36,702 bases of DNA, taken from positions 1-36,702 of IMG/VR virus record IMGVR_UViG_3300020045_001809; one strand, 5' to 3'. Source of the stretch: a virus (taxonomy: Duplodnaviria > Caudoviricetes). Shown piece by piece: positions 2,414-35,996 of the stretch; within the stretch, counting starts at the first letter, position 1, and every line of letters begins with the position of its first letter. The position numbers and the translations under genes were made by a program. The notes below the pieces were generated by a model, which searched no databases, had not been told where the DNA came from, and saw nothing but the letters and a program-made list of their open reading frames with translations.

Positions 2414-2509
2414 ATGAAAAACACACAAATTGAATCCCGTGGATGCGGATCCTGTGGAGGTACAAAACGCCCGTCAACCGTTTCCCGGCCAACCAAACCC
2501 CGAAAATGA
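2414..2509 (+). CDS. 31-aa basic CxxC micro-protein MKNTQIESRGCGSCGGTKRPSTVSRPTKPRK
   Basis: Translated by hand; A/C-rich leader, fills the intergenic gap, stop overlaps holin start as ATGA; below ORF-track cutoff. Confidence 0.7.
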   Translation: MKNTQIESRGCGSCGGTKRPSTVSRPTKPRK

Positions 2510-3036
2510 AACCCACAATTGAAGGTGACATCATCCCCATTTTCAAATCCGTTTTTTCATTGAATTTGAAAATGGAAATCCTATTGACAACCATCTTTGG
2601 CGGATTCACCTTTGGAGCCGTGACGGGTTTCACGGCCAATTGGATATTTGAACCGGCCATTTCATTTTATTTCCTGTTGTTGCTAATTGCGGCCGACCAT
2701 TTCACGGGGATGTCTGTGGCGTGGAGGCGTGGGAAATTTGAAACCCGGAAGGCATTGCGGGTGTTTTGGACGTTATTGGCACACACATGGTTGTTGGTGT
2801 TTGCCACCAATCTGTCCCGTGGATCTGTGGCTCTGTATTGGCTTAATGAGGGGATATTTGTTCCTCTTGTATTGGTGAACATGATTTCATTGGTCAAAAA
2901 CCTGTCATTGATGGGTTTGGTCAACAAACAATTCACGGTTTTGTTTTACAAAAAGGTGGACACATACAAAAATGAATTCGCACAAACAACCAATGAAATG
3001 GTGGGTGATCCTGTGGATGACCGTGGTGATCAATGA
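2506..3036 (+). CDS. Putative holin
   Basis: Several TM segments, xDHFTG motif, basic C-terminus, near amidase and spanin; start 2506 (alternative 2572). Confidence 0.75.
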   Translation: MKPTIEGDIIPIFKSVFSLNLKMEILLTTIFGGFTFGAVTGFTANWIFEPAISFYFLLLLIAADHFTGMSVAWRRGKFETRKALRVFWTLLAHTWLLVFATNLSRGSVALYWLNEGIFVPLVLVNMISLVKNLSLMGLVNKQFTVLFYKKVDTYKNEFAQTTNEMVGDPVDDRGDQ

Positions 3037-3424
3037 AGGGTGTGTCACACAACAACGGTGTTTGGAAAAATTCCCACCGGAAACCACCACATCCACAACC
3101 ACCGTCACCCGTGACACGTCCGTGTTTGTTCCCGGAAGGGAAACGGACACGGTTTTCATTGCCGTTCCCGGGGACACCGTGACGGTGGTGGACACCTTGA
3201 CCCAAATCAAAATCCGGATGGTGAAACGTCCCGGGGACACCGTGTTTGTTTCCGTGGATTGTCCGGGTGACACCGTGTTTTTGCCGGGCGTGATCCGGGA
3301 AACCGAAATCAACAAAACCCAACATCATATTGTCCGGCCAAAACCGTTCCCATGGTGGATCCTTTTGTCCATTGCAACCGTTTTGTTTGGGTTGGGATAC
3401 ATGATCAATTCATTCAAAAAATGA
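2972..3424 (+). CDS. Putative unimolecular spanin (lipoprotein with C-terminal TM)
   Basis: Hydrophobic signal ending in NEG-C, beta-rich DTV repeats, C-terminal PWWILLSIATVLFGLGY TM plus KK; start may be 2993. Confidence 0.7.
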   Translation: MNSHKQPMKWWVILWMTVVINEGCVTQQRCLEKFPPETTTSTTTVTRDTSVFVPGRETDTVFIAVPGDTVTVVDTLTQIKIRMVKRPGDTVFVSVDCPGDTVFLPGVIRETEINKTQHHIVRPKPFPWWILLSIATVLFGLGYMINSFKK

Positions 3425-3915
3425 CATTCCCTGAATGGAAAATATTGGTTGTTGAAATTGCCCGGGCATTAACCCGGGACCAAAACAATTTGTTGTTGTT
3501 GGGGGCAAAGGATTTGGAAGGGCGAATGAAACAACGGATTTTCAACAAGGGGAAAAATTCGGATGATTTGCCAATTGGTCCATACAAATCCAAATGGTGG
3601 ATCAAACAACGGAAGAAAGGCGGAAAATATTCCCCGGGCGGCCGCCAAACCAAATATGTGGATTTGGAAAATACTTCCGAACTGCGAAATTCCATTCAGG
3701 TGGTGAAGGATCCACCGGGGGTGGCATTGGCCGTGATCAATGATTTCAATTTTGACAAAGCCATGGGACAACAAATCATTCAGGGCAAAAAAAAGGGATT
3801 GGACAAAATGTTGATCTTTGAACCAACGGCAAAGGAAATCAAAGGGGTTCAGAACTACATCAATGACCTGATTGATGAAAAAATTGATGACATTTTAAGA
3901 AAATACAAATCATGA
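3421..3915 (+). CDS. Putative neck / tail-completion (virion morphogenesis) protein
   Basis: Basic protein with RQTKYVDLENTSELRNSI, resembling the L-x-x-T-G-x-L-x-x-S motif of neck proteins; ATGA coupling. Confidence 0.6.
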   Translation: MTFPEWKILVVEIARALTRDQNNLLLLGAKDLEGRMKQRIFNKGKNSDDLPIGPYKSKWWIKQRKKGGKYSPGGRQTKYVDLENTSELRNSIQVVKDPPGVALAVINDFNFDKAMGQQIIQGKKKGLDKMLIFEPTAKEIKGVQNYINDLIDEKIDDILRKYKS

Positions 3916-4439
3916 TTCAACCACTATTGGACGCCATTGTGGCCAAAATGTTCCAAAAAAACCCATTGTTTGAAAAGGGTGTTTCATTGGCCCGGATTGA
4001 TTCAAAGGGGCGGATCCTGATCCAAACCGATCCGGAAAAAAATGAATTCCAATGGGGCGGAATCACGGATCAGTCACAAAATTATTTTTACATACGTCAC
4101 CGGAATTCCGGGGAAATATTCCATGAACCGGCCCCCGGCAAACAATTTGTTTCATGCAATGGACCCGGGAAAACCGTTTCCCGTTATGAATTCCGGGTGG
4201 TGTCATGCATGACCAACTTTTGCCCCTACAAATTGGAAAAAATCATCCGGGATTCATTGGTGATGGCGGATTTCCAAAATACCACCACGGTGTCAAAAAT
4301 TAACGCCACCCCGATACGTTCCCAAATTGATTCTATGGCCGTGGTGGAGGAAGAAAACCCCGAGCCAAAGCAATTTGATAAAAATCTGATTTTTGTGGCC
4401 GTGGATTTTGACCTATCCATGGAAATCACTTATTTTTGA
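3912..4439 (+). CDS. Putative tail terminator / connector protein
   Basis: Size, position after neck gene, C-terminal beta strand; inference. Confidence 0.4.
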   Translation: MIQPLLDAIVAKMFQKNPLFEKGVSLARIDSKGRILIQTDPEKNEFQWGGITDQSQNYFYIRHRNSGEIFHEPAPGKQFVSCNGPGKTVSRYEFRVVSCMTNFCPYKLEKIIRDSLVMADFQNTTTVSKINATPIRSQIDSMAVVEEENPEPKQFDKNLIFVAVDFDLSMEITYF

Positions 4440-4456
4440 TCAAAACCAAACCGGCC

Positions 4457-4771
4457 ATGATCTGTGGATGTGTCAAAAATTTAGGGTGTTTTACACCGGG
4501 TCAAATCATTGATTTTGGATTCATCAACCCATGTGTGGGTGATGCGGATTTCATTTTTGAAATTTGGTCCAACGGAAATTTCACCACGGACACGGTGACC
4601 ATTGGAACCGGGGCGGATGTGACATTGCCATTCACGTTCAATGAAGATTCAGAAACATTGATCAAAATCAAATTGCCGGATTGCATGACCGGCCCGGGCG
4701 TTCACTATGCCACATCACAGGACGGGGCGTGTACGTTTTCAGTTCATGGCATTCCAACGGTTTGTGTGTGA
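4457..4771 (+). CDS. Small Cys-rich beta protein, probable virion component
   Basis: 104 aa, 7 Cys, starts MICGCVKNLGC; TGATG overlap with next gene. Confidence 0.6.
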   Translation: MICGCVKNLGCFTPGQIIDFGFINPCVGDADFIFEIWSNGNFTTDTVTIGTGADVTLPFTFNEDSETLIKIKLPDCMTGPGVHYATSQDGACTFSVHGIPTVCV

Positions 4772-5193
4772 TGGAATCAAAACCGGTCCCATCTGAATTC
4801 AAAGTGATCACGGCCGTGATCTTTGGGGTGGCCATGTTGGCCGTTTTCCTGAATTTCGCATTCACCCACCCGGGAACATTTGAAATGGTCATGGCGGCCA
4901 TTTTCGGGGCATTGGGGACGTTTTTTCTGCATGGTGTGTGTTTTCCCCCGGGAAAAATATTTGGACGGTGGATTCCATTTTTGGAACGTAATTTCAGGGA
5001 CAACCCAAAAAACCCGTTTGGATTTTTGGCCAACCCATTGGGGTTGTGTGCATATTGCCAAAACATTTGGATTGGTTTGATTTCGTTTGTGATCATGCAA
5101 CAACACGTTGAAATGTCATGGTGGTTTTTGTTGCCATCATTATTCATTTGCCATTTAATGTTGAACGTATTGGACAAAATGTTTTGGTCATGA
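4771..5193 (+). CDS. Four-TM membrane protein with CxxC motif (DUF1360-like; candidate thiol-disulfide oxidoreductase)
   Basis: 140 aa, four hydrophobic segments, NPLGLCAYCQNIW at the start of TM3; family call by motif resemblance only. Confidence 0.65.
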   Translation: MESKPVPSEFKVITAVIFGVAMLAVFLNFAFTHPGTFEMVMAAIFGALGTFFLHGVCFPPGKIFGRWIPFLERNFRDNPKNPFGFLANPLGLCAYCQNIWIGLISFVIMQQHVEMSWWFLLPSLFICHLMLNVLDKMFWS

Positions 5194-5663
5194 AAAAAAT
5201 CACATTACCATCCTTCAAAACACTACCGAACCCACCGGGATGTTGTTCCAATTCATTGATCCGGGATTTGGTTTTCCCGGAACCCACCCCGGGCGGATGT
5301 TGTGGTGAACAAACCTATCCAATGACACCACCGGAAACCATCCCCGGTGATTATTTGGACACCGGGTTGACGCCATACACCGTATTGGGGACATGTGATT
5401 CAACATTGGTTTTTTCAGTTACATATGACCGGATATTGGATGACCCGTTTTTTAGTACAGACGTTTATTGGAACGGAAATCCAATTGGATTGACCCCGGG
5501 CGGATCCGTATCCATTACCGTTTCACCCGGTGATCAATTGTTTTTCATTGCCATCATGGGAATCACAGGCATGGGTCAGGGCGTTTTTACCTTCCGGGTG
5601 ATCAATCAAACGTGTGGCGAAGTGACACCAACGGTGGTTTTTGTGGCCACATTGGGTGCATAA
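5190..5663 (+). CDS. Cys-rich beta protein, probable virion component
   Basis: 157 aa, two GCC motifs, 6 Cys, beta-sandwich-like C-terminal part; ATGA coupling. Confidence 0.55.
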   Translation: MKKITLPSFKTLPNPPGCCSNSLIRDLVFPEPTPGGCCGEQTYPMTPPETIPGDYLDTGLTPYTVLGTCDSTLVFSVTYDRILDDPFFSTDVYWNGNPIGLTPGGSVSITVSPGDQLFFIAIMGITGMGQGVFTFRVINQTCGEVTPTVVFVATLGA

Positions 5664-5674
5664 AGCCATCCCGG

Positions 5675-5794
5675 ATGTGAAATTTTGGGATTGATTTTCA
5701 ATCATTTCCAAATATTCCTGAAAAAATGTTTCGGAATGATTAGGAATTCCACCGGGTTGGTGTATCTTTGACAAATCAAATCAACAACAACATG
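5675..5794 (+). promoter_or_regulatory. Promoter repeat A, copy 1 (Bacteroidota -7 box TATCTTTG at 5763-5770)
   Basis: 90 of first 106 nt identical, without gaps, to 9120-9225. Confidence 0.8.
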
Positions 5795-7978: not shown

Positions 7979-9103
7979 ATGATCAGGACCGTCAACAATG
8001 GAACACAACTAATTCAGGCGGCCATTGATGCCGCCAATTTCCCAATCACCAAAATTGTGGTGGACAATGATTCCGGGGTGATCACGGTTCCGGCCGGGGT
8101 GACGGTTCCCAAAAAATTGAAGGCCACATCCAAACAATTGGAAATTGATTTGCAGGGACACACCATCATTGCCGGTGGATCCATGGAATATGTCATTGGC
8201 CGGGAACAACCCATTGACAACAATGAATCCATCAACATGATGCAATCCCAACGGTTTGTCATCAAAAACGGATTGATTGATTGTAAATTGATGGCCGGAA
8301 CCGGGGTGTTGATGCGTTCCACCTATCATGATAACATCAACGGGGTGACGGTGATCAATGGCCTGAATGGCGGCATCATTGAACAATTTGGAATGAACGC
8401 CAAAATTGAACAATGTGAAGTCCGGAACACCATGGGAATTGGGATTGGGTTGATGCGTGGAATGCACCCGGGTTCCGGGTTCAATAATTCCGGATCCAAT
8501 TCATCCCGGATATTGCAATCCCGGGTTTTTCCAAAGGATGGCCAAATGGCGTGTTTTGCGGCATCCGCCACCGGATCCGTGATCATGGACGGGGCCATTG
8601 TTGATGCCGCCCGTGATCAGTCCCCACAACGTGGATATTGGATTTTCAATGAAGGGTCCACCACGGCCAAAAACGTGACCATTGAAAATTGGTGGGGTGA
8701 AACCGTGACGGATTTGGCCATGTTTGATTTGAATCTGAATGGTGGATATTGCCGAATTTCCGGAGGGTTCCCACAATACGGTGGAACATTGGTCAAAGCC
8801 ATTGGCATCAATTACGCTGAACTATTTTTGGACATGACCGGGTTCATTCCCGGAACCACCAAATTCCAAACACAACCCGGTGGGGTGGTTTGGTCATTCC
8901 GTGACAACAACACGTCATTTGATTTTGCCAACCCGGCCAATTGGGTGGGTGGGGTGTTGCCACAGAAGTGGTTCATTGAACGGTTTGGATCTTCAAAGGA
9001 TCGGGAATTCCGTGTTCCCGGTGGGTTCAAATTGAACGGATCCAACATCATCAACCAAACCACATTGGACACCATTTTGGCCGGTTATGTGAAAAAGCCA
9101 TAG
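7979..9103 (+). CDS. Right-handed beta-helix (pectin-lyase-like) protein, possible depolymerase/tailspike
   Basis: IDLQGHTI, VIKNGLID, INGVTVIN, KIEQCEVRN, NVTIEN rung-like repeats; G/N/I/V-rich. Confidence 0.6.
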   Translation: MIRTVNNGTQLIQAAIDAANFPITKIVVDNDSGVITVPAGVTVPKKLKATSKQLEIDLQGHTIIAGGSMEYVIGREQPIDNNESINMMQSQRFVIKNGLIDCKLMAGTGVLMRSTYHDNINGVTVINGLNGGIIEQFGMNAKIEQCEVRNTMGIGIGLMRGMHPGSGFNNSGSNSSRILQSRVFPKDGQMACFAASATGSVIMDGAIVDAARDQSPQRGYWIFNEGSTTAKNVTIENWWGETVTDLAMFDLNLNGGYCRISGGFPQYGGTLVKAIGINYAELFLDMTGFIPGTTKFQTQPGGVVWSFRDNNTSFDFANPANWVGGVLPQKWFIERFGSSKDREFRVPGGFKLNGSNIINQTTLDTILAGYVKKP

Positions 9104-9119
9104 GAATTTGATGTGTTGA

Positions 9120-9240
9120 ATGTGAAATTTTGGGATTGATTTTCAGTAAGTTCCAAATAATTGTGAAAATATGTTTCGGAATCATTAGGAATCCGGGCGG
9201 GTTGATGTATATTTGTCAAACCAAACACAACAACATCATG
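9120..9240 (+). promoter_or_regulatory. Promoter repeat A, copy 2 (-7 box TATATTTG at 9208-9215)
   Basis: Diverged direct repeat of 5675-5794. Confidence 0.8.
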
Positions 9241-20616: not shown

Positions 20617-23600
20617 ATGGCCGTCAAAAACGTATTATTCCGGATCAATGCCGACACATCCGGGGCAAAAAAGGGGTTGAACGAAATTGAAAAGGAAATC
20701 AATGACGTTGATAAAGCCGCCAAAAACACCGGGAAAACCATGTCCGGGTTTGGTGGGACTTTGGCCAATGCGGCCGCCACATTTACCGGCATTGCCGTAG
20801 GATCCGCCATCACGGCATTGGGTGTGGATTCCATCAAAGCGGCCGCAGATTTTGAACAACTGAACATTTCGTTTGAAACATTTTTGGGTTCCGCTGAACA
20901 GGGAAAAAAGGTGTTGGAAGATCTTCAAAAATTTTCCGGGGCCACACCGTTCACCGGGAAGGAAGTTCAAACGGCCGGCAAAGCCTTGTTGGCATTCGGC
21001 ATTGATGCGGAAAACCTGATCCCGACATTGACACGAATTGGGGACATTTCGGCCGGAACCGGAAAAAATTTCAATGAATTAGCCATCATTTATGGCAAAG
21101 CAAGAACACAGGGAACATTGTTTGCAGAAGATATAAACCAATTGACGGAAGCCGGGATCCCAATCATTGGGGAATTTGCCAAACAATTTGGTGTGGCGGA
21201 ATCACAGGTGAAAAAATTGGGTTCAGAAGGGAAAATCAGTTTCGCCAATTTGGAAAAGGCGTTCCAATCATTGACGTCACAGGGCGGAAAATTTGCCGGG
21301 TTGACGGAAAAATTGTCCCAATCCACGTCCGGACGTTTTTCCACATTGGTGGACAATTTTGACCAATTGAAAATTTCCATTGGAACCGGGTTGTTGCCGG
21401 TGGCGGAATCTCTGATTGATACGTTCACCGGGTTCATTGATGCCATCCGGAACATCCCCACATTTGTGGAGGAAAACCGGACGGCTCTGTCATTATTGGC
21501 CGGGGTGTTGACAACCTATGTGGCGTCATTGGCGGCAAATAACGCCATCACATTGGTTTCAATTTTGCGTCAAAAGGCATTGGGGGGCGAATTTGGAATC
21601 ACGGCCATCCGCCAAAGATTGGCCACGGCCGCCCAAAAGGCAGACACCACGGCCAAACGGATTGGGGCGGTGGCCACAGAGGGGGCAACCATAGCGGTTC
21701 AGGGGTTCAATGCCGCCCTGAATGCCAATCTAATTGGGTTGGTCATTGGTGCATTGACAACTCTCTATTTGCTTTTCGGGGATTTCGGGGATGAAGTGGA
21801 TGACACCACGGAAAAGGTGGAAAAGTTCATTGACGCCAACACGGCCGTGGGGAATTTTGCGAAGGATTTCCAAAAAAATGTGAATGAGGAATCCGGGGCG
21901 TTGAACAAATTGGTGGCGGATCTGAAAAAGACAACGGCCGGATCAAAGGAACGCCAAACCATCATTGACCAAATCAATTCCAAATACGGCACCACCCTGA
22001 AAAATTTGAAGGATGAAACGGAATTTGTGAAACAATTGGATGGCCAATATCAAAAGGCCATTCAGTCCATTAAGGAAAAGGCCATTTTGCAAGCCGGTGA
22101 AGATAAATTGGTCAAATTATATCAGGAACAATTCCGTGTCACACAACAATTGAATGACGCATTGGCGGAAAGGGATGAAATCCAAAAAAAGATCACAACC
22201 CAATTTCAGGACACCAATGTTCAACCATTGATTGATCAGGCGTTGTCCATTAATGATGTGAAGGTGGCGGCCGCCAAAAAGGAATTGGCCGACATTGACA
22301 CGGCATTGAAAAAAATTGAGGCCATTTACAAAAAGATCACACCGGCCACCACGAATGAAGATGAAAACACCCCGGCCGGTGATCCTGAAAAGATCAAAGC
22401 CACGGCCAAATTGTTGTTGGATCTGTCAAAGGAATTGGAAAAACTACGGGCGGAAAATGACATCAAACCAATTGAATTGATTGACCCGGAAAACGTGGAT
22501 CAGTCCATTGCACAATTGGAAAAATTGAAACAGGCCCAAAAGGATCAAATTGATGCATCCATCAATGAACGGATCCGTGAAGCCAAAGCGGCAAAAATTT
22601 TGACCACGGAAGTGGAATCCCAATTGGAGCAAATCCGGAATGAACAAAAAATTGGAACCGAAATTGAATTCCAAAACAAAATCAATTCCATCCGCAAACA
22701 GGCGGCCATTGATGATGCCAACACGTTGAACGAAATTGATCAATTGGCATTGGAAAAACGGTTGTTTGAAACCGAAACGGCCAACGGGAAAATTGAATCC
22801 GCCATGGCAGATTTGCAAGACCGGTTGGCCAAAGCCACCACGGAAAAGGCCCGTGAAGCCATCCGGGCGGAATTTGCGGCAAAGATTGATGAGATCCGCA
22901 AAGGATACAAAGCGGAAGAAGCCATCAGGATTCAACAAATTGAATTGGCCCGGGATCAGGAATTGGCCAACGTGAATTTGACGGCCAATGAACGGAAGTT
23001 GATCATTCAAACGGCCGAATTGGAAATCCTGAAAGTGAAAAAGGATTATCAGGACAAAAATGTTGAATTGAACAAACAGGGGAATGAAACCGTCACCAAA
23101 AATGATGAGGAAACCCAAAAGGCCATCATTGAAGGGGTGAAGGAAGTGACAAAGGAAACCATTGATTTGATCAATTCCGTGAATGCCGCCCGGATTGCGG
23201 AAGCGGATCAGGCCATTTCAGTTCAGGAACAACGGATTGAAAAGGCCCGGGAAATTGCAGACAAAGGGAATGCCGAAATTTTGCAATTGGAAGAAGAAAG
23301 GTTGACCAAATTGAATGAACAACGGGCCAAATATGTCCGTCAACAACAGGCATTAGGATTGATTGAAATGGTGACCAATTCAACGGTGGCCATTTCCAAA
23401 GCGGCCGCAGAAGGTGGGGCGGCCGCCCCGTTCACCATTGCATCCACATTGATTGCATTGGCGGCCGGGTTCATTGATGCCAAAGCACAGGCACAGGCGG
23501 CCGGGGGTTTTGCGGAAGGTGGTTTCACCGGCCATGGCGGCAAATATGAACCGGCCGGGGTGGTTCACCGGGGTGAATTTGTTTTCAATCAGGAAAAAAC

Positions 23601-23841
23601 CCAAAAGTTCCGTCCAATATTTGAAGCCATCCACAAAGGGCGTGATCCGTTCATTGCATCCGGCATGGCCGAAAAAATTGTGGTGATCAACAATTCCGGA
23701 ATGGATGAAAAATTGACCCGGATTGAAAAGGCAATCAGGGATCAAAAGGGTTTTGAATTGTCAATTTCGGAACGTGGGATCCACGGGATGGTTTCCAATT
23801 TACAATGGAAGGATTCCCGGATCCGTAACAAATCAAAGTGA
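20617..23841 (+). CDS. Tape measure protein
   Basis: 1074 aa, tape-measure N-terminal domain (TPFT, EDINQLTEAGIP), coiled coil, C-terminal GFAEGGFTG..PAGVVHRGEFV. Confidence 0.95.
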   Translation: MAVKNVLFRINADTSGAKKGLNEIEKEINDVDKAAKNTGKTMSGFGGTLANAAATFTGIAVGSAITALGVDSIKAAADFEQLNISFETFLGSAEQGKKVLEDLQKFSGATPFTGKEVQTAGKALLAFGIDAENLIPTLTRIGDISAGTGKNFNELAIIYGKARTQGTLFAEDINQLTEAGIPIIGEFAKQFGVAESQVKKLGSEGKISFANLEKAFQSLTSQGGKFAGLTEKLSQSTSGRFSTLVDNFDQLKISIGTGLLPVAESLIDTFTGFIDAIRNIPTFVEENRTALSLLAGVLTTYVASLAANNAITLVSILRQKALGGEFGITAIRQRLATAAQKADTTAKRIGAVATEGATIAVQGFNAALNANLIGLVIGALTTLYLLFGDFGDEVDDTTEKVEKFIDANTAVGNFAKDFQKNVNEESGALNKLVADLKKTTAGSKERQTIIDQINSKYGTTLKNLKDETEFVKQLDGQYQKAIQSIKEKAILQAGEDKLVKLYQEQFRVTQQLNDALAERDEIQKKITTQFQDTNVQPLIDQALSINDVKVAAAKKELADIDTALKKIEAIYKKITPATTNEDENTPAGDPEKIKATAKLLLDLSKELEKLRAENDIKPIELIDPENVDQSIAQLEKLKQAQKDQIDASINERIREAKAAKILTTEVESQLEQIRNEQKIGTEIEFQNKINSIRKQAAIDDANTLNEIDQLALEKRLFETETANGKIESAMADLQDRLAKATTEKAREAIRAEFAAKIDEIRKGYKAEEAIRIQQIELARDQELANVNLTANERKLIIQTAELEILKVKKDYQDKNVELNKQGNETVTKNDEETQKAIIEGVKEVTKETIDLINSVNAARIAEADQAISVQEQRIEKAREIADKGNAEILQLEEERLTKLNEQRAKYVRQQQALGLIEMVTNSTVAISKAAAEGGAAAPFTIASTLIALAAGFIDAKAQAQAAGGFAEGGFTGHGGKYEPAGVVHRGEFVFNQEKTQKFRPIFEAIHKGRDPFIASGMAEKIVVINNSGMDEKLTRIEKAIRDQKGFELSISERGIHGMVSNLQWKDSRIRNKSK

Positions 23842-25589
23842 TGGCAACAACAATGAAAATTGAATTGAACGGGACGTTGATCACGGGAAGGATTGACGGA
23901 ACGGATCAATTCCAAATAACAATCAGGCGGAAGGATGATGACGGATCCATGGCCAAATCCTTTTCATCTGAATTGACATTCTATGATGACGGATACAACA
24001 TTTTAAAAACCCAATTGATTGATGATCCCATTGGGTTCACCAAAACGGTGGCGGTGAAGGTGTGGGATTCATGTTGTGAAACCCCGTTTGAATTTGTCAT
24101 CAAAGGGGATGGAATTGATTGGTGTGAACCGGGATGTTTCATCACGGCCAATTTGATTGAGGAAGCCCCGGAAATCAATTGTGTCCGTTCCACCATGTTA
24201 TGGGACAACCACAACGGGTTTTTGGGACGCCAATTCATTCCCATCCGTTATTGTATTGAAATGAAACCGGAATTCATTCAATACGTTTTGACCTTTTTGA
24301 CATTTATCATGAATTTGATTTTCACGGCCATCCTGATTCCGTTGATTGCCGTGATTTTGGTCATCTTTTCAATCATTTATGCCGTTTGCTCCGTCATTTC
24401 CCTGATTTGTTCCATCCCTTTGATTGGATGCACCCCACCAAATTGCAATTCCGGATTCACCAACCCCACGGTGGTGATCAATAACATCATTCAGGCATTG
24501 GCGGAAATCAATGAATCCATTGTCCCATGTGGCCGGTTCCACCCATCACCATACATCCGGGATTACATCACCAACGTGTGTCAAAAATGTGGATTGACGT
24601 TTCAATCATCCATCCTGAATGACCCGTCATCACCCTATTTCAACACCGTGATGGTGGCGGCCCAAATCAAAAAGGGGCGGAAGAAAAATGACGGGGATTT
24701 CACGTTGATTGGTGACAACAAGCCGGTGGAAACATTGGCCACATTGTTGGATGATTATTTGAAACCGGTGTTCAACGGGGATTATCGGATCACCGGGGGC
24801 GTGTTGATTTTTGAACGGAAGGATTGGTTTCAAACCACCGTGAATTGGATTGACACGGAACAATTGTTGAACAACCATGACATCATTGACAATGCCATTT
24901 GTTATTCATGGCAGGACCGGGAACGGTATGCATATGGCCGGTTCCAATACCAACCGGACGCCATGGATTACATTGGAAATGAAGCCAAATCACGGTGGAA
25001 TGACATTGTGGAATGGAATGTCCCCTATTCACCGGGGCAATCCGGGGAAAAGTCCGTCCAATTGCCAATTTCACCGGCACGGTTCAGGGGTGACGGGATT
25101 GACACGGACATTTTCACGTTTTTCAAAAATGCATTGGGGGGCGTGATCAACACCATTTTTTTTGGGGCGTTTTCCAATTATGACCGGGCGTTATTGATCA
25201 ACCAACACACGTTTTTCAACTATAAATTTCTGATATACAACCCGGGATCCGGAAGTGACGGGGAGGTGGTGAATTATTTTGATGATGCATACACGGGCGG
25301 CCCGGTGGCCGGGGATCCGGATGAACGGTTCAATTATCCATTTTGGTTTGTGGAAGGCCATCCCGGGAATCTCTATTCCAATTTCCATTTCATTGATGAT
25401 CCACGTTTGCCGGGATCCACACAATTTGATTTCAAATTTGAATTCCGTTTTGTGTGTGACCAATTGGATTCATTTGATTTTGGGAAAACCGTCAAATTGA
25501 TAAAGGGCGGAACATACGTCAACGGGGTGGTTCAGGAAATGAAAATTGATTTTTCCAACCGGACCATCACCATCAATGGATTTGTTTGA
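23841..25589 (+). CDS. Tail tip/hub protein with internal hydrophobic segment
   Basis: TGATG-coupled to tape measure; 15 Cys; about 50-aa uncharged stretch. Confidence 0.65.
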   Translation: MATTMKIELNGTLITGRIDGTDQFQITIRRKDDDGSMAKSFSSELTFYDDGYNILKTQLIDDPIGFTKTVAVKVWDSCCETPFEFVIKGDGIDWCEPGCFITANLIEEAPEINCVRSTMLWDNHNGFLGRQFIPIRYCIEMKPEFIQYVLTFLTFIMNLIFTAILIPLIAVILVIFSIIYAVCSVISLICSIPLIGCTPPNCNSGFTNPTVVINNIIQALAEINESIVPCGRFHPSPYIRDYITNVCQKCGLTFQSSILNDPSSPYFNTVMVAAQIKKGRKKNDGDFTLIGDNKPVETLATLLDDYLKPVFNGDYRITGGVLIFERKDWFQTTVNWIDTEQLLNNHDIIDNAICYSWQDRERYAYGRFQYQPDAMDYIGNEAKSRWNDIVEWNVPYSPGQSGEKSVQLPISPARFRGDGIDTDIFTFFKNALGGVINTIFFGAFSNYDRALLINQHTFFNYKFLIYNPGSGSDGEVVNYFDDAYTGGPVAGDPDERFNYPFWFVEGHPGNLYSNFHFIDDPRLPGSTQFDFKFEFRFVCDQLDSFDFGKTVKLIKGGTYVNGVVQEMKIDFSNRTITINGFV

Positions 25590-25601
25590 TAAATTTGAAC
25601 T

Positions 25602-28526
25602 ATGGCAGTATCAGGGAACTTTATTGAAGTCATTGGCCTATCCACGGCCGTTGACAATCCGATTTACTACGGTTCGGCCGGGTGTTGTGGGATTGTCAAC
25701 CTAAAAATCCGCATTCTTCCCATTGACGTTTTCCCGTTGATGCCGTTCACATTGAAGGTTGTGACATGGACGGACGGTTGTTCATCCTATGCACCAACCA
25801 TGGTGAATGGGCAACCATGGGCCAATCCATTGACAACCCCGGTGATCATGAATCCCGGTGATGTGGTGGACATTCAATTGGCCATTTGTTCATGTGTCGG
25901 GGTTGGGAATACGTTTGCCGGACAATTGTATTTGGAAGGGGATGACGCCACGGCCACAACATACAATCAAACAACCAACTATACGTTCATTGAACACAAC
26001 ATTGCGTCATTGCCGCCATTCACGGATACATATGTGAACCACTATCCATGTGACGGTGATCCATCATGTCCACCACGTCCGGGATACATTTATTTCACCA
26101 ACCCCACGGTGGCGGATGTGTGGGTGGGCGTGATCATGGGAGCCGGTCCATTGTGCCGGGTGGATGGCGTGGTTGTTCCGACATATACGGCCCCGGGATT
26201 GGGAACATCCTTTTTGGCCAAAGCAGGGCAGACCTATGAAATTGAATCATATCAATGTCCAACGGCCGGGGCGGTGTCATGGTGTATTGATTTTGAAATT
26301 TGCGGGGATCTTTGGTCATCAACATATGGTTGTTGCCTGATCATTGACACCCCGGTGACGTGTGGTCCCTGTGATTTGGCGTGTGTATCATTGGAAATTC
26401 AGGATGCGGATTCAATTTTGGGATCCACGTCCGGATCATGTCCATCCATGGGTGGATATGTGGCGGAACGGGCAATTGGTGAGGAATTGAAATTGCAATG
26501 GACGGTTCAATATGCCAACAACTTTTTTGGCGGTGACATTGATTTCTATTTCAACCCGTGGTTGTATGGTGATGTGTGCAATTTTGCATCAAAATACGGA
26601 TCCGGGATCATTGATTCACCACCCCCGGTGGCGTTCCATTTCAGAATCCAACCGTCCCATGTGGCGGATGGCCTATGTCATGACATGACGTTGATTGGTG
26701 CCGGAATCAATGCATTGAATCAAAAAAATTTCACGGCCACCATTTGTGTTTCAACGGACATGACGGCCGTGATTAACTTCAAATGGTTTGTGATTGCAGA
26801 CATTGACAATTGGTTGGACTCATCCGTGGTTCCAAACCAACCCAAATTGTTGAACAATCACATTTCCGCCCCGGTGCCATTGGTCAACACGGTGATGTCA
26901 GCATTCAACACAAACAAAAACATTTGTTTGTTGGCATACATAAAGGATCCAAAAACGGAAGTTCCTTCCGTGGGTGATCCATCCATCATGGTGCCATATG
27001 AATGTCATCTGATTTCAAACATTGGTTTCACGGCCCGTTTTTACAATGACGGAATCACGGGCGGCCCGGCCGAAATGACCAACCCGGAATTTGAATTTGA
27101 ACGGAACGGGGTGATTGTTCCGGGGTTGTCATCCTATGCCAAAACAAAAGTGACATTCCGCATCACCTACGGACCCCCACCATCCACGGCACAAATCACC
27201 CATTGTTATTTTTGGTTGATTGACGCCAATCAATTCAATGATTTTGTGGATTTCCCGGACAATTATGATTCATCCCGGGCGTTGATCACCACCATCCCGG
27301 GTGTGACCGTGTTGGATAACAAATTGCAATCCCCATCCGTAGGTCCAACCCACATTGGCGGTGGAACCTATGAAATGTCGGCATATATCGGGGGTGGAAT
27401 TTTGGGTGGTGGACAATATTACATCATTGCCGTTCCATATGCACAGGATGAACCAATGGTCAATTCCTTCATTTCAGGTCCCATCCCGGTGACACCGGTT
27501 CCGGGAATTGAAGGGTGTTGTCCACCTGATTTGTCACAAAATATTTGGTGGGATTATTACAATTCATATTCCGGATGTTTCACTCCAACCATGAAGGAAC
27601 GCATCCGGAACACCCTGTTGATTGAACCGGGTGATTTTGGAACGTGTTTGGAAAATTGGGGTTGGGATCCAATGGATTTTGATTGGTTCAATTTCATGAA
27701 GTCCGTCACGTTGAACATTTACAGGCGTGTGACTAATTATCCCACACCATTACAAAACACCTATTTCGTTTTTGATTCCTTCAAATCCATCCGTGACACG
27801 GCCGTGTCCGGGAATTGGATCAATCCACGTCCGGATGAATTTTTAGTGGAAGAATCAGCCGGGGTGAAATTGGATTTGATGTGGAACGGCCGGGTCCGTT
27901 ATGAATCCAACATTCCGGTTCCGCCATCCAATGTGTTTGTTGCCGGTGTGTCCACCCCAATGAACCGTGTTCCGGCCGGTGGAGCCGCCCCGGCATACAT
28001 CACGGCCAACAATGCAAATTTTGATTGGGCCAATACGGACATTTATTTTGAATATGTGGTTGAATTTGATCTGTCATTTCTTTTTGGCGGAAACCCATGT
28101 GTGTTCAATCAGGTGTTCATTAACCGGATCAAACCAATTGATTTTGAAACCACCCCAAACCCATATGGACAATTGTTTGAACCACTATTGGTGGAAGGGG
28201 TGAAGGGTGTGACCAAAACCGAAATCACCGGCCAATTTTGTCCAAATGATTATGACTATTTGTTGGTGACCATGGAATCATTGGCCGCCATGGATGGACG
28301 TGTTTATGCATTTTTGGATCCGTATCCATATGGGGTGGCCAACCTGATTGAAAAGGACCCAACCACATCACCATCCGGGTTCACACAATTGGGATTGGCA
28401 TTGGGATACATTTATGCACAGGACGCCACCCATGTCGGAACAAAATCTGAATGGAAATTAGACATCAATTCCATTCCGCCCGGGAAATACCAACTTTGCA
28501 CATTGTTTTTAGACAAAAAACCGTAA
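25602..28526 (+). CDS. Large Cys-rich tail protein (putative receptor-binding/baseplate)
   Basis: 974 aa, beta-rich, acidic, 30 Cys, tail module. Confidence 0.6.
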   Translation: MAVSGNFIEVIGLSTAVDNPIYYGSAGCCGIVNLKIRILPIDVFPLMPFTLKVVTWTDGCSSYAPTMVNGQPWANPLTTPVIMNPGDVVDIQLAICSCVGVGNTFAGQLYLEGDDATATTYNQTTNYTFIEHNIASLPPFTDTYVNHYPCDGDPSCPPRPGYIYFTNPTVADVWVGVIMGAGPLCRVDGVVVPTYTAPGLGTSFLAKAGQTYEIESYQCPTAGAVSWCIDFEICGDLWSSTYGCCLIIDTPVTCGPCDLACVSLEIQDADSILGSTSGSCPSMGGYVAERAIGEELKLQWTVQYANNFFGGDIDFYFNPWLYGDVCNFASKYGSGIIDSPPPVAFHFRIQPSHVADGLCHDMTLIGAGINALNQKNFTATICVSTDMTAVINFKWFVIADIDNWLDSSVVPNQPKLLNNHISAPVPLVNTVMSAFNTNKNICLLAYIKDPKTEVPSVGDPSIMVPYECHLISNIGFTARFYNDGITGGPAEMTNPEFEFERNGVIVPGLSSYAKTKVTFRITYGPPPSTAQITHCYFWLIDANQFNDFVDFPDNYDSSRALITTIPGVTVLDNKLQSPSVGPTHIGGGTYEMSAYIGGGILGGGQYYIIAVPYAQDEPMVNSFISGPIPVTPVPGIEGCCPPDLSQNIWWDYYNSYSGCFTPTMKERIRNTLLIEPGDFGTCLENWGWDPMDFDWFNFMKSVTLNIYRRVTNYPTPLQNTYFVFDSFKSIRDTAVSGNWINPRPDEFLVEESAGVKLDLMWNGRVRYESNIPVPPSNVFVAGVSTPMNRVPAGGAAPAYITANNANFDWANTDIYFEYVVEFDLSFLFGGNPCVFNQVFINRIKPIDFETTPNPYGQLFEPLLVEGVKGVTKTEITGQFCPNDYDYLLVTMESLAAMDGRVYAFLDPYPYGVANLIEKDPTTSPSGFTQLGLALGYIYAQDATHVGTKSEWKLDINSIPPGKYQLCTLFLDKKP

Positions 28527-28529
28527 TCC

Positions 28530-29585
28530 ATGGGACTATATTTCACATCATACACCACCGGGTTCACCACATATTGTGATCAATCACCCAATTGTGAATT
28601 GACGGATTCATTGTCCCGGATTGCCTGTCAACAAATTGAAATGTTGGATTGTGGGGATGGGCCATGTGACAAATTGATCATCAACAACGGGTTGTTGCTT
28701 TGTGATTGTGAAGATTCCACCAATTGCAACCCCTGTTTCAATGACCGGGCGTTTTGGAACGTAATCAACCCAACGGATACATTGACATTTCAATTCCAAC
28801 AAATTGACATGGTGAACGGTCAAAATCCGGCCGGACCATTTGGTTTTTGGGGAACGGAGCAATTTGCCAACGGATACATCCGGGATTGTTGTACGGGTGA
28901 ATATTTGGGTGGGGCGGAAAACCCGTCAACCATTGTTTTCTATTCCGGTTCGGCCGGGGTTGGTGTGTTCCCCGTCCGTGATTACAAAGGTGACATCACA
29001 TGGAAAAACATCCAACAAATACAGGTTTTTCCGGAATTTTTTATCCCGGAAATGGAAGCGCAATTCCCAAATTGGGACGGGTGTTTTGTTTTTGAATGGG
29101 TGTTTAATGAGGGAACAGATGATGAATATCGGGTTTGTTCAGAGCCATACAAGGTGAACCCATGTCCGGACAAAAATGACACCGTGATGTTGGAAGGCCA
29201 ATTCCCAAATTTGGATTGTTTCGGGTATTATTACGGGGATGAAGCGGTGGGAAATTCCATGGCAAATTTCCCGTTTGTCAACCAATACCGTGTGTATGGA
29301 TCCATGGAACAAACGTCATTTGGCATTGAAAAACAATTTGTGGGGACATACATGAAAACCGTTTCAAGTGATGTGACGGAAAATTGGTTGTTCCGGACAA
29401 TTGGTGTTCCATCCCCTGTGGCCAAATTGATCACCAACATTTTGGCGGCCGAAACCGTCATTGTGGACGGGGTTGAAATGGTGGCGGATGGTGAAGTGCC
29501 AAAGAACAATGAAACGGGTTCACAATGGTTCATTGATGCCGTGATGAAACGTGTGGATTGCTCAAAAACCTATTCATGTCAATAA
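28530..29585 (+). CDS. Cys-rich tail protein (distal-tail-like candidate)
   Basis: 351 aa, 17 Cys, tail module. Confidence 0.5.
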   Translation: MGLYFTSYTTGFTTYCDQSPNCELTDSLSRIACQQIEMLDCGDGPCDKLIINNGLLLCDCEDSTNCNPCFNDRAFWNVINPTDTLTFQFQQIDMVNGQNPAGPFGFWGTEQFANGYIRDCCTGEYLGGAENPSTIVFYSGSAGVGVFPVRDYKGDITWKNIQQIQVFPEFFIPEMEAQFPNWDGCFVFEWVFNEGTDDEYRVCSEPYKVNPCPDKNDTVMLEGQFPNLDCFGYYYGDEAVGNSMANFPFVNQYRVYGSMEQTSFGIEKQFVGTYMKTVSSDVTENWLFRTIGVPSPVAKLITNILAAETVIVDGVEMVADGEVPKNNETGSQWFIDAVMKRVDCSKTYSCQ

Positions 29586-29598: not shown

Positions 29599-31518
29599 AT
29601 GAAAATAGTTGAAATCAACCAATATTTGAAGGATCTTCCGGAACCCAAAAAAAAGGAAAAATGGGTGGAGGTCCGGGATGAAATGATTGTCCACACCCGT
29701 GGGGCAACCCCCGGGGACATCCTTTTGAAAAGGCGTCCCAATGAAGATCCGGAAGTTCAAAAATATCGGTTGGAAATTTATGAACCCATCACAAAAGGGT
29801 CCATGAACCGGGCCATTGATAAATTGTTCCGGATATTTCAATCCGCCAACTTTTCCATCAAGGTGTCCGGGCAATTGTCGGAATATTTGGACAAACAAAA
29901 ATTTTCCAACCAATATTTCTATTCCTACATACAAAAATTTGTTGTCAGGCGGATGATTGAAGATCCCAACGGGTTTTTGGCGTGGATCCCATCCGGCCCG
30001 GGCGTGGAAGATTCCACCAAAAAGGTGGATGTCACCCCGGTGTTGATTGAATCCGGGAAGGTCCGGTTTTTGACGGAAGATTCCATCACATGGTTGGATC
30101 CGGATCAAAAATCAATGATCCGTAAAAACGGGAAATTAGTGGAGGAAGGGGATGTTTATTTCACATTGACAACCACCGGGTTTTTCCGCCATAATCAGGA
30201 AGGGGACACCATCAAAAAACGGTTTGTGTTGGTTCCCATCTATGAACACAACATGAATCAGGTCCCGGCCATGGTGTTGGGTGGTGATCAAACCGATGAT
30301 GGATATTTTGAAAGCTATTTTTCTTCATTCCTTCCGTTTGCAAATGAAGCCATCCGCCAATATTCCGATTGGCAAGGCGTAATGACAACAACGTGTTTCC
30401 CTTACCGTGAAGAAGTGGCGGAAACGTGTTCCGCCCCGGGATGTCGTGACGGATATTGTTATGACGCCAAAAAGGATGAAAATTTCCCTTGTAAGGAATG
30501 TAAAGGAATGGGCCGGATCATTGTCCGTTCACCGTTTGGTGTGTTTTTGCGTGAAAAAGGTGGTGGCGTTTTGGATCCACAGGGCGGATCCGGTGGTGAC
30601 GTTCCAATGTTGCGGTTCATTTCCCCACCGGTTGACGTGATCAGGGAATCCCGTGAGGCGTGGGAATTATTATTGGACAAAGCGGAACGGGCATTGTGTT
30701 TGGACAACGTGGAGGAAGCACAATCCGGGGTGGCCAAAAAAATTGACCGTGAGGATGGTGACATGGTATTGACAAAGGTTTCCAACAACGTGTTTGATGA
30801 AATCATTTTCAAATCCCTGTTGTTCATTGAAAAATACAGGAACGTGACGGACCCAATGGATCCAATCATTGTGAAACCAATTTCGTTTTCATCCAAAACG
30901 GAAGATGATTTGATTGATGAACTGAACAAATTGACGGACAAAAACGCCCCAATTTCGTTTTTGGTGGAAGCCACAAAGGATTTGGCCAAAAAACGGTTTT
31001 CATCCAACAAAGCCATTGCCCGGATGGTGGAAATTTTGGTTTCATATGACCCGATATATCACGTCACCAAAAAGGATCAACAATTGATGTTGGCGTCCGG
31101 CATCATCAAAAAGGATGTCCTAATCCGTTCCGTATATGCCTACAAAGCATTGATGACATTGGTGTCCAAAAACGGTTCCGAATATTTGGAAAAGGAAATG
31201 GAAACCATCTTCATGGATTTGGACAAAGCCATTCAACCGGAAGTGGATAAAATAATGAACCAACCATTGGTTTCATTGGGTGGCACCCCGGCCGGTGGTG
31301 GCGGAAACGGTGAATTTGTGGATGAGGAATTGAAGGCCAAAGCTAATTTAAAGGGATCTGTTGGTGGTGTTCAGGGGATAATTGCCATCCAACAAAGTGT
31401 GGCCCGGGGATTCACGTCCCGGAATGCGGCCGTTGAACTTTTGATGGAAATTTATGGGTTTTCCCGTGAAGTGTCTGAAAAAATGATTGGGGATCCAATT
31501 GACGCCCCGGTGGAATAA
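29599..31518 (+). CDS. Portal protein with zinc-finger-like insertion
   Basis: Size, AQSGVAKKIDR (SPP1-type portal SGxAK motif), upstream of MuF and scaffold. Confidence 0.85.
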   Translation: MKIVEINQYLKDLPEPKKKEKWVEVRDEMIVHTRGATPGDILLKRRPNEDPEVQKYRLEIYEPITKGSMNRAIDKLFRIFQSANFSIKVSGQLSEYLDKQKFSNQYFYSYIQKFVVRRMIEDPNGFLAWIPSGPGVEDSTKKVDVTPVLIESGKVRFLTEDSITWLDPDQKSMIRKNGKLVEEGDVYFTLTTTGFFRHNQEGDTIKKRFVLVPIYEHNMNQVPAMVLGGDQTDDGYFESYFSSFLPFANEAIRQYSDWQGVMTTTCFPYREEVAETCSAPGCRDGYCYDAKKDENFPCKECKGMGRIIVRSPFGVFLREKGGGVLDPQGGSGGDVPMLRFISPPVDVIRESREAWELLLDKAERALCLDNVEEAQSGVAKKIDREDGDMVLTKVSNNVFDEIIFKSLLFIEKYRNVTDPMDPIIVKPISFSSKTEDDLIDELNKLTDKNAPISFLVEATKDLAKKRFSSNKAIARMVEILVSYDPIYHVTKKDQQLMLASGIIKKDVLIRSVYAYKALMTLVSKNGSEYLEKEMETIFMDLDKAIQPEVDKIMNQPLVSLGGTPAGGGGNGEFVDEELKAKANLKGSVGGVQGIIAIQQSVARGFTSRNAAVELLMEIYGFSREVSEKMIGDPIDAPVE

Positions 31519-31521
31519 AGC

Positions 31522-33201
31522 ATGGCGGAACCAACTGTTTTTTCCAAAAACATCAACACCCTGTTGGATGAAAAATCCAAAGGGATTTCCACGGCCGAAA
31601 AAAAGTTCATGGCCGGATGGGATGGAATTGAAAAACACATTTTCAAACGGGTGAAGGAATATTCCCTGAAATTGGGAACCACGGGCGGTGTGTTGGATTT
31701 TGATCCGTCCAACGTAGAACACGTCAACGGGTTGTCAAAAGTGATTTTGGACGCCATTGATACATCCGAATATCCCGAAAAGGTGAAGGATTACATCCGG
31801 GATTTTGATGTGATTAAAAAAACCAACATGGAAATCCACGGGGATGTGAACGGGTTGTCAAAAAAGGAATTGGAAAAAGCCATCAACCCGGTTCAACAAC
31901 AAATGGTGGATCAAACCATCACCGGGTTGACCGGTTCCGGGATTGACACGGAATTCATCCAACCCATGAAAGAAGGCATCATGAAAAACATTGTTGCCGG
32001 TGCAACCATGGCGGATTTGGAAAAGGTCATTGAAGGCTTCATCATTTCCAACCCGGCCCGGTTGGGACGGTTGACCAACTATTCCCAACAAATTGCCCGG
32101 GATACATTGAACCAATTTGATGGCCAAATTAATTCACGGATTGCCACGGAATTTGGCCTGAATGCCTACCGTTACGTGGGAAGCCTGATTGATGATTCCC
32201 GTCCCCAATGCATCCGGTGGGTGAGAAAAGAGGTGTTGACCAAAGATGAATTGGAGGCGGAAATTAATTGGGCCAACAATAACGGTTCAGGAATGATCCC
32301 GGGAACCAACCCTGAAAATTTCGGAACATTCCGGGGTGGTTACAATTGCCGCCATGCCGCCATCCCGTTCAAATTGACCAAATCCCAATTGGAAGAATTG
32401 GGGAAAAGGGAGCCGGATCCACCAAAACCACCGGATCCACCAAAGGATGAATATGACATTGGATTAACTGAATCACAAAAGGATTTAAATTTGACATTTG
32501 GACAATCCGCAAAAGTTCCGGACAATTTGAAATATTTGAATTTGCCGGATCAATTGTTTGAATTGTCGGACAATGGTTCCGCAAATATTGGGGCGGCCGG
32601 TTCCCATTACGACCCATTCACAAAAAAAGTGGAATTGGGATTGAATTCACAAAGGGCCAAAGCCGGGCCAACTTATTCACCACGTGTGACCATCCATGAA
32701 TATGCACACCGGACACATTTCAATGAAAAGTGGTTCACATTGGTAATGGATGAAGCGGATCCCGGACACATGAAATCATTTGAAGATTCTGTCAATTTGT
32801 TCAACAAAAAATTTTCAACCCGGGCATCAAAAAAGGCGGCCGGGGTGGATGCCGTGACCATGGCGGATGTTGCCAAAAATTTTGACATTTCAATGTTGTT
32901 GGACAAATACAAAGGGAAAATCCCCGGGGCTAATGAACGGGATGTTGTTGAACTTATTGTTGCCTATTTGGACACAATTGAGGCATTGAGCCGGGGGAAA
33001 TATGGAATGGGCCATGGCAAAAAGTATTTCACACAACGTGCCGGGGCGTTCCGGCCAATGGAATGGTTTGCCCATGCATCTGAAAATTATTGGTTCGGAA
33101 ATATTGTTTTCAAAACTGAATTCCCTGAACTTTATGATCAAATGATGGATTACTACAAAAACAGGGTTGTGAATGAAAAATTGTCAAAATTCAAAAAATG
33201 A
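31522..33201 (+). CDS. MuF/SPP1 gp7-like minor head protein with C-terminal HExxH metallopeptidase domain
   Basis: YRYVGSLIDDSRPQC..RGGYNCRH MuF motifs; Pro linker; IHEYAH..EWFA..FPELY. Confidence 0.8.
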   Translation: MAEPTVFSKNINTLLDEKSKGISTAEKKFMAGWDGIEKHIFKRVKEYSLKLGTTGGVLDFDPSNVEHVNGLSKVILDAIDTSEYPEKVKDYIRDFDVIKKTNMEIHGDVNGLSKKELEKAINPVQQQMVDQTITGLTGSGIDTEFIQPMKEGIMKNIVAGATMADLEKVIEGFIISNPARLGRLTNYSQQIARDTLNQFDGQINSRIATEFGLNAYRYVGSLIDDSRPQCIRWVRKEVLTKDELEAEINWANNNGSGMIPGTNPENFGTFRGGYNCRHAAIPFKLTKSQLEELGKREPDPPKPPDPPKDEYDIGLTESQKDLNLTFGQSAKVPDNLKYLNLPDQLFELSDNGSANIGAAGSHYDPFTKKVELGLNSQRAKAGPTYSPRVTIHEYAHRTHFNEKWFTLVMDEADPGHMKSFEDSVNLFNKKFSTRASKKAAGVDAVTMADVAKNFDISMLLDKYKGKIPGANERDVVELIVAYLDTIEALSRGKYGMGHGKKYFTQRAGAFRPMEWFAHASENYWFGNIVFKTEFPELYDQMMDYYKNRVVNEKLSKFKK

Positions 33202-33401
33202 AAAAATTACAAATCCTTTTGGGTGAATATATGATGGCCAATCCACAGGCGGAAAATCCAATGTCATTTTTGGAAGTGTTTGGGATTGATGGATTGATTG
33301 AGATTTTGGAAAAAGCCAAAAACCGGTTGGTGACATTTGAAACGGGCGATGATTTGACGGATGTGATCACACCATTGATTGACGGCCGGAAATTCGTTTG
33401 A
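33198..33401 (+). CDS. Small acidic protein, candidate immunity protein for the MuF toxin domain
   Basis: 67 aa, ATGA-coupled to MuF; role is inference. Confidence 0.5.
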   Translation: MKKLQILLGEYMMANPQAENPMSFLEVFGIDGLIEILEKAKNRLVTFETGDDLTDVITPLIDGRKFV

Positions 33402-33448
33402 TTTTCGTTTCAAAACCCGAAATCATTACATTTGGGAAAAATTACACC

Positions 33449-33826
33449 ATGTCGGAAAAAATAAAAGTCCAAAACCTGAAAACCGGGCAAATCAAAATGA
33501 TGACCCCGGCCGCCATCAACCAATTGAAATCATCCGGGTTGTTTGGCCATTTTGAAATCATTCAGGACATCAAAATCCCATCAACGGGTGTTCCACCCGA
33601 TGGTGATCAAATCCCCGTTCCCGTGGATGAAAACCCGGTTGGGACGCCAATTGATCCATTGCCGGTTGAACTGAATCCTGTGGATGAAAAACCGGAACCA
33701 TTGATGGCCGTTGAACTGAACATGGACGTGGTGGATGACATCCCGGATTCAGATCCGGAACCAAAACGGGGTGATCAGGATGGAACGGAACCAAAAAAGC
33801 CAACAACAAAATCCAATAAAAAATGA
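33449..33826 (+). CDS. Hypothetical protein, Pro/Asp-rich C-terminus
   Basis: ATG 33449, preceded by TACATTTG box at 33427-33434; ATGA-coupled to scaffold. Confidence 0.7.
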   Translation: MSEKIKVQNLKTGQIKMMTPAAINQLKSSGLFGHFEIIQDIKIPSTGVPPDGDQIPVPVDENPVGTPIDPLPVELNPVDEKPEPLMAVELNMDVVDDIPDSDPEPKRGDQDGTEPKKPTTKSNKK

Positions 33827-34662: not shown

Positions 34663-34702
34663 CAAATTGTTCCCCTTATTCATGAGGGAAACAAATTGAA
34701 CC

Positions 34703-34738
34703 AACCCCGGCCATTGATTTGGTTGGGGTTTCGTTTTT
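34703..34738 (+). terminator. Intrinsic terminator after scaffold gene
   Basis: AACCCCGGCCA-TTGATT-TGGTTGGGGTT then TCGTTTTT; a second hairpin lies at 34667-34694. Confidence 0.7.
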
Positions 34739-34763
34739 GAAGGCGAAAAAATATTATCCGCAT

Positions 34764-34796
34764 TTTGGACATTTCCAAAAAATGGATTTATATTTG
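34764..34796 (+). promoter_or_regulatory. Bacteroidota sigma-A promoter for major capsid gene
   Basis: TTTG (34764-34767) N21 TATATTTG (34789-34796). Confidence 0.75.
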
Positions 34797-34799
34797 GAT

Positions 34800-34940: not shown

Positions 34941-34986
34941 AACAAACAAAATCATTCAACAAAAACAAACCAAAAACCAAAAAAAA

Positions 34987-35979: not shown

Positions 35980-35996
35980 TCCAATAAACAATCAAA

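Follow-up and report, generated by a model that had tools for sequence, protein, structure and literature searches.

The window analysed here is a 36,702-nucleotide stretch of DNA from a tailed phage (Caudoviricetes; IMG/VR virus record IMGVR_UViG_3300020045_001809), and the gene in question, at positions 4771-5193 on the plus strand, encodes a membrane protein of 140 amino acids (aa) with a CAYC motif. An earlier reading made from the letters alone, without database searches (hereafter the sequence-only reading), had proposed that this protein, possibly through a 31-aa peptide encoded at 2414-2509, introduces disulfide bonds into capsid and tail proteins before lysis. By profile comparison the product is a distant DUF1360-like protein, under the Pfam cut-off of that family, and we give about even chances to its being a cytoplasm-facing membrane thiol oxidase that would serve the building of cross-linked shells.

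A DUF1360-like membrane protein

The cysteines of CAYC, C93 and C96, open the third of four long helices predicted for the 140-aa protein, and C57 lies in the same loop. The ATG of the gene overlaps the stop codon of the gene at 4457-4771, and its own stop overlaps the ATG of the gene at 5190-5663; coordinates, overlaps and structural model thus confirm what had been read from the letters, a CxxC at the start of the third transmembrane helix in a gene translationally coupled on both sides. In the AlphaFold2 model (predicted local distance difference test 86, predicted template modelling score 0.70) the long helices span residues 9-32, 36-52, 94-112 and 117-138, and the CxxC pair begins the third (94-112), which places it at the membrane edge, at one end of a helix.

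A profile search with the membrane protein yielded 254 representatives. The CxxC was kept in 149 of the 150 best profile matches, with a freely varying dipeptide between the cysteines and a tryptophan following, a conservation that is partly built in because the motif itself weighs in the profile. For the alignment (A2), 150 of 161 sequences were taken and the sequence with the broken motif was excluded. The first helix is absent from 125 of the 150 aligned relatives, and the core of the family therefore consists of three helices. A third cysteine is present in the loop preceding the motif in 88 of the 150. Such a cysteine would suit the resolution of mixed disulfides and speaks for a reductase or isomerase, which would keep the cysteines of the virion (or of a spore coat, see below) free, or reshuffle wrong pairs, until the shell closes; the co-occurrence evidence presented below is all compatible with either direction. 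In contrast, a location in the membrane is what an oxidant sink needs, and the cytoplasm is already supplied with thioredoxin and thiol buffers. We consider a role of this kind improbable.

Lysines and arginines (K/R) were counted in equal 15-residue windows located before the motif and at the far end of the motif helix. They were more abundant before the motif in 143 of 148 relatives and in 69 of 70 Bacillota DUF1360 proteins, and by the positive-inside rule this bias predicts that the CxxC of the window protein is on the cytoplasmic face, not on the periplasmic one, which the sequence-only reading had named as incompatible with its proposal.

The window protein gave no match at the gathering cut-off of PF07098 (DUF1360; 21 bits), and in a scan of 100 relatives all stayed below this value (10 weak matches, the best 19.5 bits). 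When the family profile was compared with that of PF07098 by hhalign, the two aligned with CxxCxxxW in register (65% probability, E 6e-5). The family profile also matched ReqiPine5 gp09 (E 6e-8), which itself exceeds the Pfam cut-off for DUF1360, as well as proteins of Jollymon (E 4e-6) and Big4 (E 1e-4) and members in Bacillota. The top match in the Atlas (0.91; DUF1360 in 42% of its members) was flagged as weak. First among the viral fold neighbours of the model was a 139-aa membrane protein of crAss001, which was taken as gp97; the crAss001 relative matched with E 3e-19. In a tree of 47 rows a long branch parts the window group and crAss001 gp97 from the actinophage and Bacillota members. 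What the window protein has in common with DUF1360 (PF07098, phrog_781) is the architecture of a small membrane protein in which CxxCxxxW opens a helix and a K/R-rich loop lies ahead of it, whereas the extra N-terminal helix, the loop cysteine and the separate deep branch set it apart. B. subtilis scored in the control for the PF07098 search, and we take YjcA to be its DUF1360 protein. The literature naming DUF1360 that was covered by our search, which left most subscription papers outside, assigns no function to the domain.

The Pfam models of DsbB, VKOR and MauE matched none of 12 family members (E<=1) or 100 relatives (E<=0.05), the window protein matched no DsbB, VKOR or MauE chain among the PDB sequences, and searches of the PDB with the model by Foldseek and VIA-align returned nothing at E<=0.001, DsbB and VKOR being unlisted; the best fold match (Z 6.2) was to unrelated bundles. 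Thus, of the three kinships that the sequence-only reading had suggested for a search, the one with DUF1360 was supported by profile comparison, and for those with DsbB and VKOR neither a sequence match nor a fold match was found. The likeness lies in a cysteine pair at the membrane edge of a small helical bundle. According to the accessible text of bioRxiv 10.64898/2026.03.05.709764, the active site of DsbB, VKOR and MauE lies on the periplasmic side and works with a partner of thioredoxin fold, whereas the site of the window protein is predicted on the opposite, cytoplasmic side. No gene for a thioredoxin-fold protein could be recognised in the window genome, and PHROGs scans of 50 open reading frames (ORFs) named no thioredoxin. 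It has been reported that inverted DsbB or VKOR is able to drive cytoplasmic disulfide formation (PMC4727284, available text).

Cysteine-rich virion proteins and their companions

Counting confirmed a high cysteine content in the presumed outer virion proteins, as had been noticed from the letters: they contain 3.3% cysteine (105 of 3171 residues), the presumed inner proteins 0.3% and all others 1.2%, where the groups were set from gene position after the sequences had been viewed. The tape measure has no cysteine in 1074 aa. Of 92 full-length relatives, 85 have an even number of cysteines in the capsid protein, as do 25 of the 29 left by clustering at 70%, and four pairs of capsid cysteine columns co-vary (r 0.84-0.96), 69/308 and 320/327 being among the co-varying pairs. 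Even counts and co-varying pairs would be the pattern expected of disulfides, and metal-binding pairs would match it too. The motif of the membrane protein might be a metal or iron-sulfur site, in which the CxxC of two protomers, or a CxxC and the CxC hook of a neighbouring protein, would bind zinc or a cluster, the virion cysteines being metal-stitched. Metals are often bound by CxxC and CxC, and the pairwise co-variation in the capsid suits them. However, the family has no second invariant ligand pair, and the solved virions with such cysteines, those of Milano, crAss001 and Jabs, show disulfides in the available descriptions. We rate a metal site no higher than the reductive role discussed above.

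The capsid family comprised 80 loci, and the 48 longest records were searched for the membrane gene. It was found in 24 of the 25 records that were at least 90% complete; the single miss stops 3.7 kb past the capsid gene, before the usual 6 kb. The membrane gene, a 104-aa gene with a CxC motif and the 31-aa peptide occurred together in 42 of 42 family loci. Since the operon is shared with endolysin, holin and a spanin-like gene, and the family count represents one lineage, these data would also fit a lysis accessory or an unrelated late gene that is linked to the cysteine-rich virion by shared ancestry only. Recurrence of the pairing in actinophages, in Milano-type phages (there with a different protein family) and at Bacillota spore-coat loci makes this explanation very improbable.

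The 31-aa peptide (2414-2509, plus strand), whose stop overlaps the start of the holin gene, consists of a cysteine pair in the motif GCGSCGG followed by a tail of lysine, arginine and proline. Each of the 42 distinct family loci has a matching short ORF in this position, which shows that the ORF picked out in the sequence-only reading is a true gene and not a chance one. Its cysteines form CxxC in 19 loci, CxC in 22 and CC in one, so that the anticipated companionship with a CxxC micro-ORF held for the short ORF but not for the motif. With CxC in 22 of 42 loci, cross-linking within the virion is a likelier role than that of a relay shuttle, and the peptide is probably a virion cross-linker or substrate. 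The CxxC relay carrier earlier held possible fits poorly with these numbers and with the virion-associated annotation of a look-alike in Milano; a mobile shuttle appears possible but doubtful. A codon-position test on the peptide was discarded, because the search pattern had already fixed the first and second positions.

The two genes flanking the membrane gene encode cysteine-rich proteins, in agreement with what had been seen in the letters. The 104-aa gene (4457-4771, plus strand), coupled to the membrane gene, lies immediately upstream of it in 42 of 42 loci. Its product carries an N-terminal CxC and 7 cysteines, of which C3, C5 and C11 are invariant (30 rows), and is predicted to form an Ig/FnIII-like beta-sandwich (best fold match Z 6.3), recalling linking protein 1 of Milano. 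With this fold, a thioredoxin-like carrier was ruled out for the 104-aa protein. The 157-aa protein on the downstream side (5190-5663, plus strand; 6 cysteines, two CC pairs) is the product of a variable gene that ends the late operon and could be detected in just 7 of the 42 loci.

If the membrane protein is an oxidase, substrate thiols of the assembling virion proteins would attack the CxxC disulfide, and electrons would pass from the CxxC into the membrane, probably to quinone, which would allow a particle stapled by disulfides to form before lysis. Both the peptide and the 104-aa protein have N-terminal CxC/CxxC hooks, which might be the first substrates, or might act as cross-linking arms like Milano's linking proteins. 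In this model we infer the topology, the virion disulfides, the direction of electron flow, the quinone acceptor and the timing. The poxvirus relay, E10R-A2.5L-G4L, uses an FAD (flavin adenine dinucleotide)-dependent Erv fold and a thioredoxin-like protein. Neither of these was seen in the window; moreover, the window peptide has no fixed CxxC (CxC in 22/42, CC in 1/42) and the neighbouring 104-aa protein is a beta-sandwich. The likeness to poxvirus and mimivirus, as far as the available accounts go, is that virus-encoded cysteine-pair proteins stand alongside virion proteins that are, or in the window phage would be, disulfide-bonded although they come from a reducing cytoplasm. Poxvirus and mimivirus have thiol oxidoreductase pathways of their own according to the accessible part of PMC13576161, which states that no such pathway has been described in phages. 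In the literature available to us both membrane thiol oxidases and virus-encoded disulfide pathways, the latter in large eukaryotic viruses, are already known kinds.

Other phages and spore-forming bacteria

The virion of phage Milano has a solved disulfide network (PMC10491603, available text). As described in the accessible parts of the reports on Milano (PMC10491603, PMC10811340) and Jabs (bioRxiv 10.64898/2026.07.24.740622), these phages resemble the window phage in their cysteine-rich outer proteins, cysteine-free tape measure and N-terminal cysteine arms, whereas their capsid family is unrelated to that of the window phage, which is uncultured. Milano also has its own pair of CxxC membrane gene and GCGCG peptide, as the window phage has a CxxC gene and a GCGSCGG peptide. 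Milano gp4, an unannotated protein of 81 aa, contains CPCC ahead of one predicted membrane helix and a further near-invariant cysteine, and it is followed by gp5, a basic 42-aa peptide annotated as virion-associated (L014:3913-4287 for gp4 and gp5). Among relatives whose upstream DNA was long enough, profiles built from those same loci detected the Milano-type membrane gene in 36 of 36 and the peptide in 34 of 36.

Inter-subunit tail disulfides have been reported for crAss001 (PMC10172136, available text), where the disulfides are in the tail and gp57. In three further phages the DUF1360 gene lies close to the portal gene, immediately ahead of it in Jollymon and in Big4 and two genes earlier in ReqiPine5; ReqiPine5 and Jollymon have a small GCSC/GCGSC gene and ~1.1% cysteine. 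This position near the portal gene speaks for a membrane tether or assembly platform that would keep the portal vertex or proteins with a CxC hook at the inner membrane, possibly through a mixed disulfide, while the disulfides of the virion form spontaneously in air at or after lysis. Such a role is also favoured by retention of the gene in the cysteine-poor Big4, which keeps a CGCG motif in a nearby gene, and, in the available texts, by the unaided oxidation of NBD2 tubes (PMC13576161) and by the Jabs authors raising oxidation during or after lysis (bioRxiv 10.64898/2026.07.24.740622). A tether, however, has no need of a cysteine pair whose spacing is fixed while the dipeptide in between varies freely, and the gene is distant from the portal gene in the window family and in crAss001; we regard it as rather unlikely. 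Big4 gp66 (L548:17958-18335) combines the CGCG motif with a basic tail close to the DUF1360 gene, and the hook may be the true partner.

A blind panel was obtained from two terminase-motif scans (240 loci, 148 with a terminase ORF, 81 with at least 1200 aa downstream). Median cysteine content was 0.50% over the 81 loci, six of which reached at least 1%; the same downstream measure gave 1.63% for the window and 1.48% for Milano. Forty-four blind records, 18 of them at least 90% complete, were searched whole, and the family profile matched in one, G056, which ranks 4 of 81 in cysteine, has a presumed capsid protein with 10 cysteines and carries a CxxC-led 105-aa gene just upstream. G056 is not fully independent, because its layout suggests a distant relative. 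Its DNA (L551:13264-20000, L550:9811-17815) is provirus-like, with flanking genes of host type and a distant version of the family's cysteine-rich virion block. A Milano-type match in G051 was weak (E 1e-3, one stop), a PF07098 match in G050 was discarded (internal stops; frames read without CxxC), and a generic CxxC-plus-hydrophobic detector gave wrong-frame noise only on the panel.

A motif scan of bacterial genomes yielded 120 loci, 80 with DNA and 70 with a DUF1360 ORF; 43 cysteine-rich neighbours were scanned. A Pfam CotZ gene (cotY/Z) was within 5 kb of the Bacillota DUF1360 in 29 of the 70 loci. The spore coat is put together in the cytoplasm of the mother cell, and CotY/Z are linked by disulfides. 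Among 100 independently drawn Bacilli, 22 had DUF1360, 12 had CotZ and 7 had both (p 0.004, uncorrected for kinship and sporulation), and in 6 of these 7 the two were at most 2 kb apart. B. subtilis yjcA is under sigma-E control (PMC517825) and, like cotY and cotZ, Bacilli-specific, both according to available text. Near the DUF1360 of other Bacillota, cotY/Z is replaced by a second type of cysteine-rich neighbour (210-240 aa, mostly 13-15 cysteines, no Pfam match; L114:1567-2286, L115:2327-3037, L152, L160, L162, L181, L130, L158), and in L171 collagen-like and SipL-like cysteine-rich genes adjoin DUF1360.

These comparisons suggest that the gene tracks extensive disulfide networks, with exceptions. 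DUF1360-like proteins may form an undescribed class of cytoplasm-facing thiol oxidase for phage virions and Bacillota CotY/Z coats, recognising CxC/CxxC hooks, with Milano gp4 as a convergent case and the basic peptide as carrier or packaged cross-linker; we put the chances of this wider proposal somewhat below even.

Several observations weigh against the oxidase interpretation. Even-count parity in the capsid falls to 11 of 15 at 60% clustering and to 4 of 6 at 50%, co-occurrence within the family amounts to one lineage, and a core of three helices leaves little room for a quinone site. Milano gp4, tried as a homologue of the window family, showed no profile similarity and differs in its single predicted membrane helix. 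The crAss001 capsid protein has 2 cysteines, and the relative gene of this phage is outside the virion block. Big4 has DUF1360 beside the portal gene yet 0.2% cysteine in the virion block, and in G049 (173 kb, 82% complete) the gene is present and none of the virion proteins is evidently rich in cysteine. Conversely, no convincing match turned up in the DNA searched for five further blind loci, all at 1% cysteine or more, and Pam3 and NBD2 were unmatched by all three profiles, though the available texts report disulfides for both; NBD2 gp39 produced on its own in E. coli carries disulfide bonds without a phage helper (PMC13576161, accessible part). In the Bacilli, DUF1360 was absent from 5 of 12 CotZ genomes and CotZ from 15 of 22 DUF1360 genomes. 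Because the exceptions run both ways, the gene is neither a sufficient sign of virion disulfides nor required for them. The co-occurrence with cysteine-rich virions put forward in the sequence-only reading is thus strict inside the family, where the virion has paired cysteines, and fails in both directions elsewhere (Big4 and G049; Pam3 and NBD2).

Candidates that could be deleted in cultured systems are B. subtilis yjcA, mycobacteriophage cluster B gp7, Milano gp4 and crAss001 gp97. If the oxidase interpretation is true, a domain common to phages and spore formers would gain a function, and the protein could serve as a catalyst of very small size for making disulfides in the cytoplasm.

The late operon and other features of the window

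The 36.7-kb virus record carries a direct terminal repeat of 121 bases (1-121), which marks it as a complete genome; its late operon begins with the capsid gene, crosses the join and extends to 5663. Terminase, tape measure, head-maturation protein, endolysin and holin were named by PHROGs, whereas the capsid, major tail, portal and adaptor genes were assigned from position only. Database searches gave no match for the window capsid, major tail and portal genes, and neither a cultured nor a solved relative was found for the capsid protein. The host may be a member of Bacteroidota, judging from a single relative annotated within an Aequorivita bin.

The following genes are all on the plus strand. 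The presumed major capsid protein (34987-35979; 10 cysteines) sits behind a scaffold-like gene, and the presumed major tail protein (36061-36609; 8 cysteines in 182 aa) was recognised by position and size. Beyond the join come an amidase endolysin (935-1453; PF01510, phrog_822), the presumed head-tail adaptor (1434-2384; 9 cysteines in 316 aa), the holin (2506-3036; PF05105) and a presumed tail-completion protein (3912-4439; 3 cysteines), the adaptor and the completion protein being assigned by position. Three tail-tip genes past the tape measure (23841-29585) encode 15, 30 and 17 cysteines in 582, 974 and 351 aa, respectively.

The gene order is odd, as terminase is followed by tape measure and tail-tip genes (20617-29585) and these by portal and head genes (29599-36609), and lysis genes are interspersed among head-tail genes. 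AT-rich stretches at 5680-5770 and ~9100-9170 are near-identical as judged by translations. Like intergenic motifs upstream of several genes (36610-36702 / 29-117, 5664-5791, 9085-9150) may represent a promoter repeat. Beyond the virion block, a 374-aa gene at 7979-9103 without a PHROGs match has a repeat-like beta-helix character.

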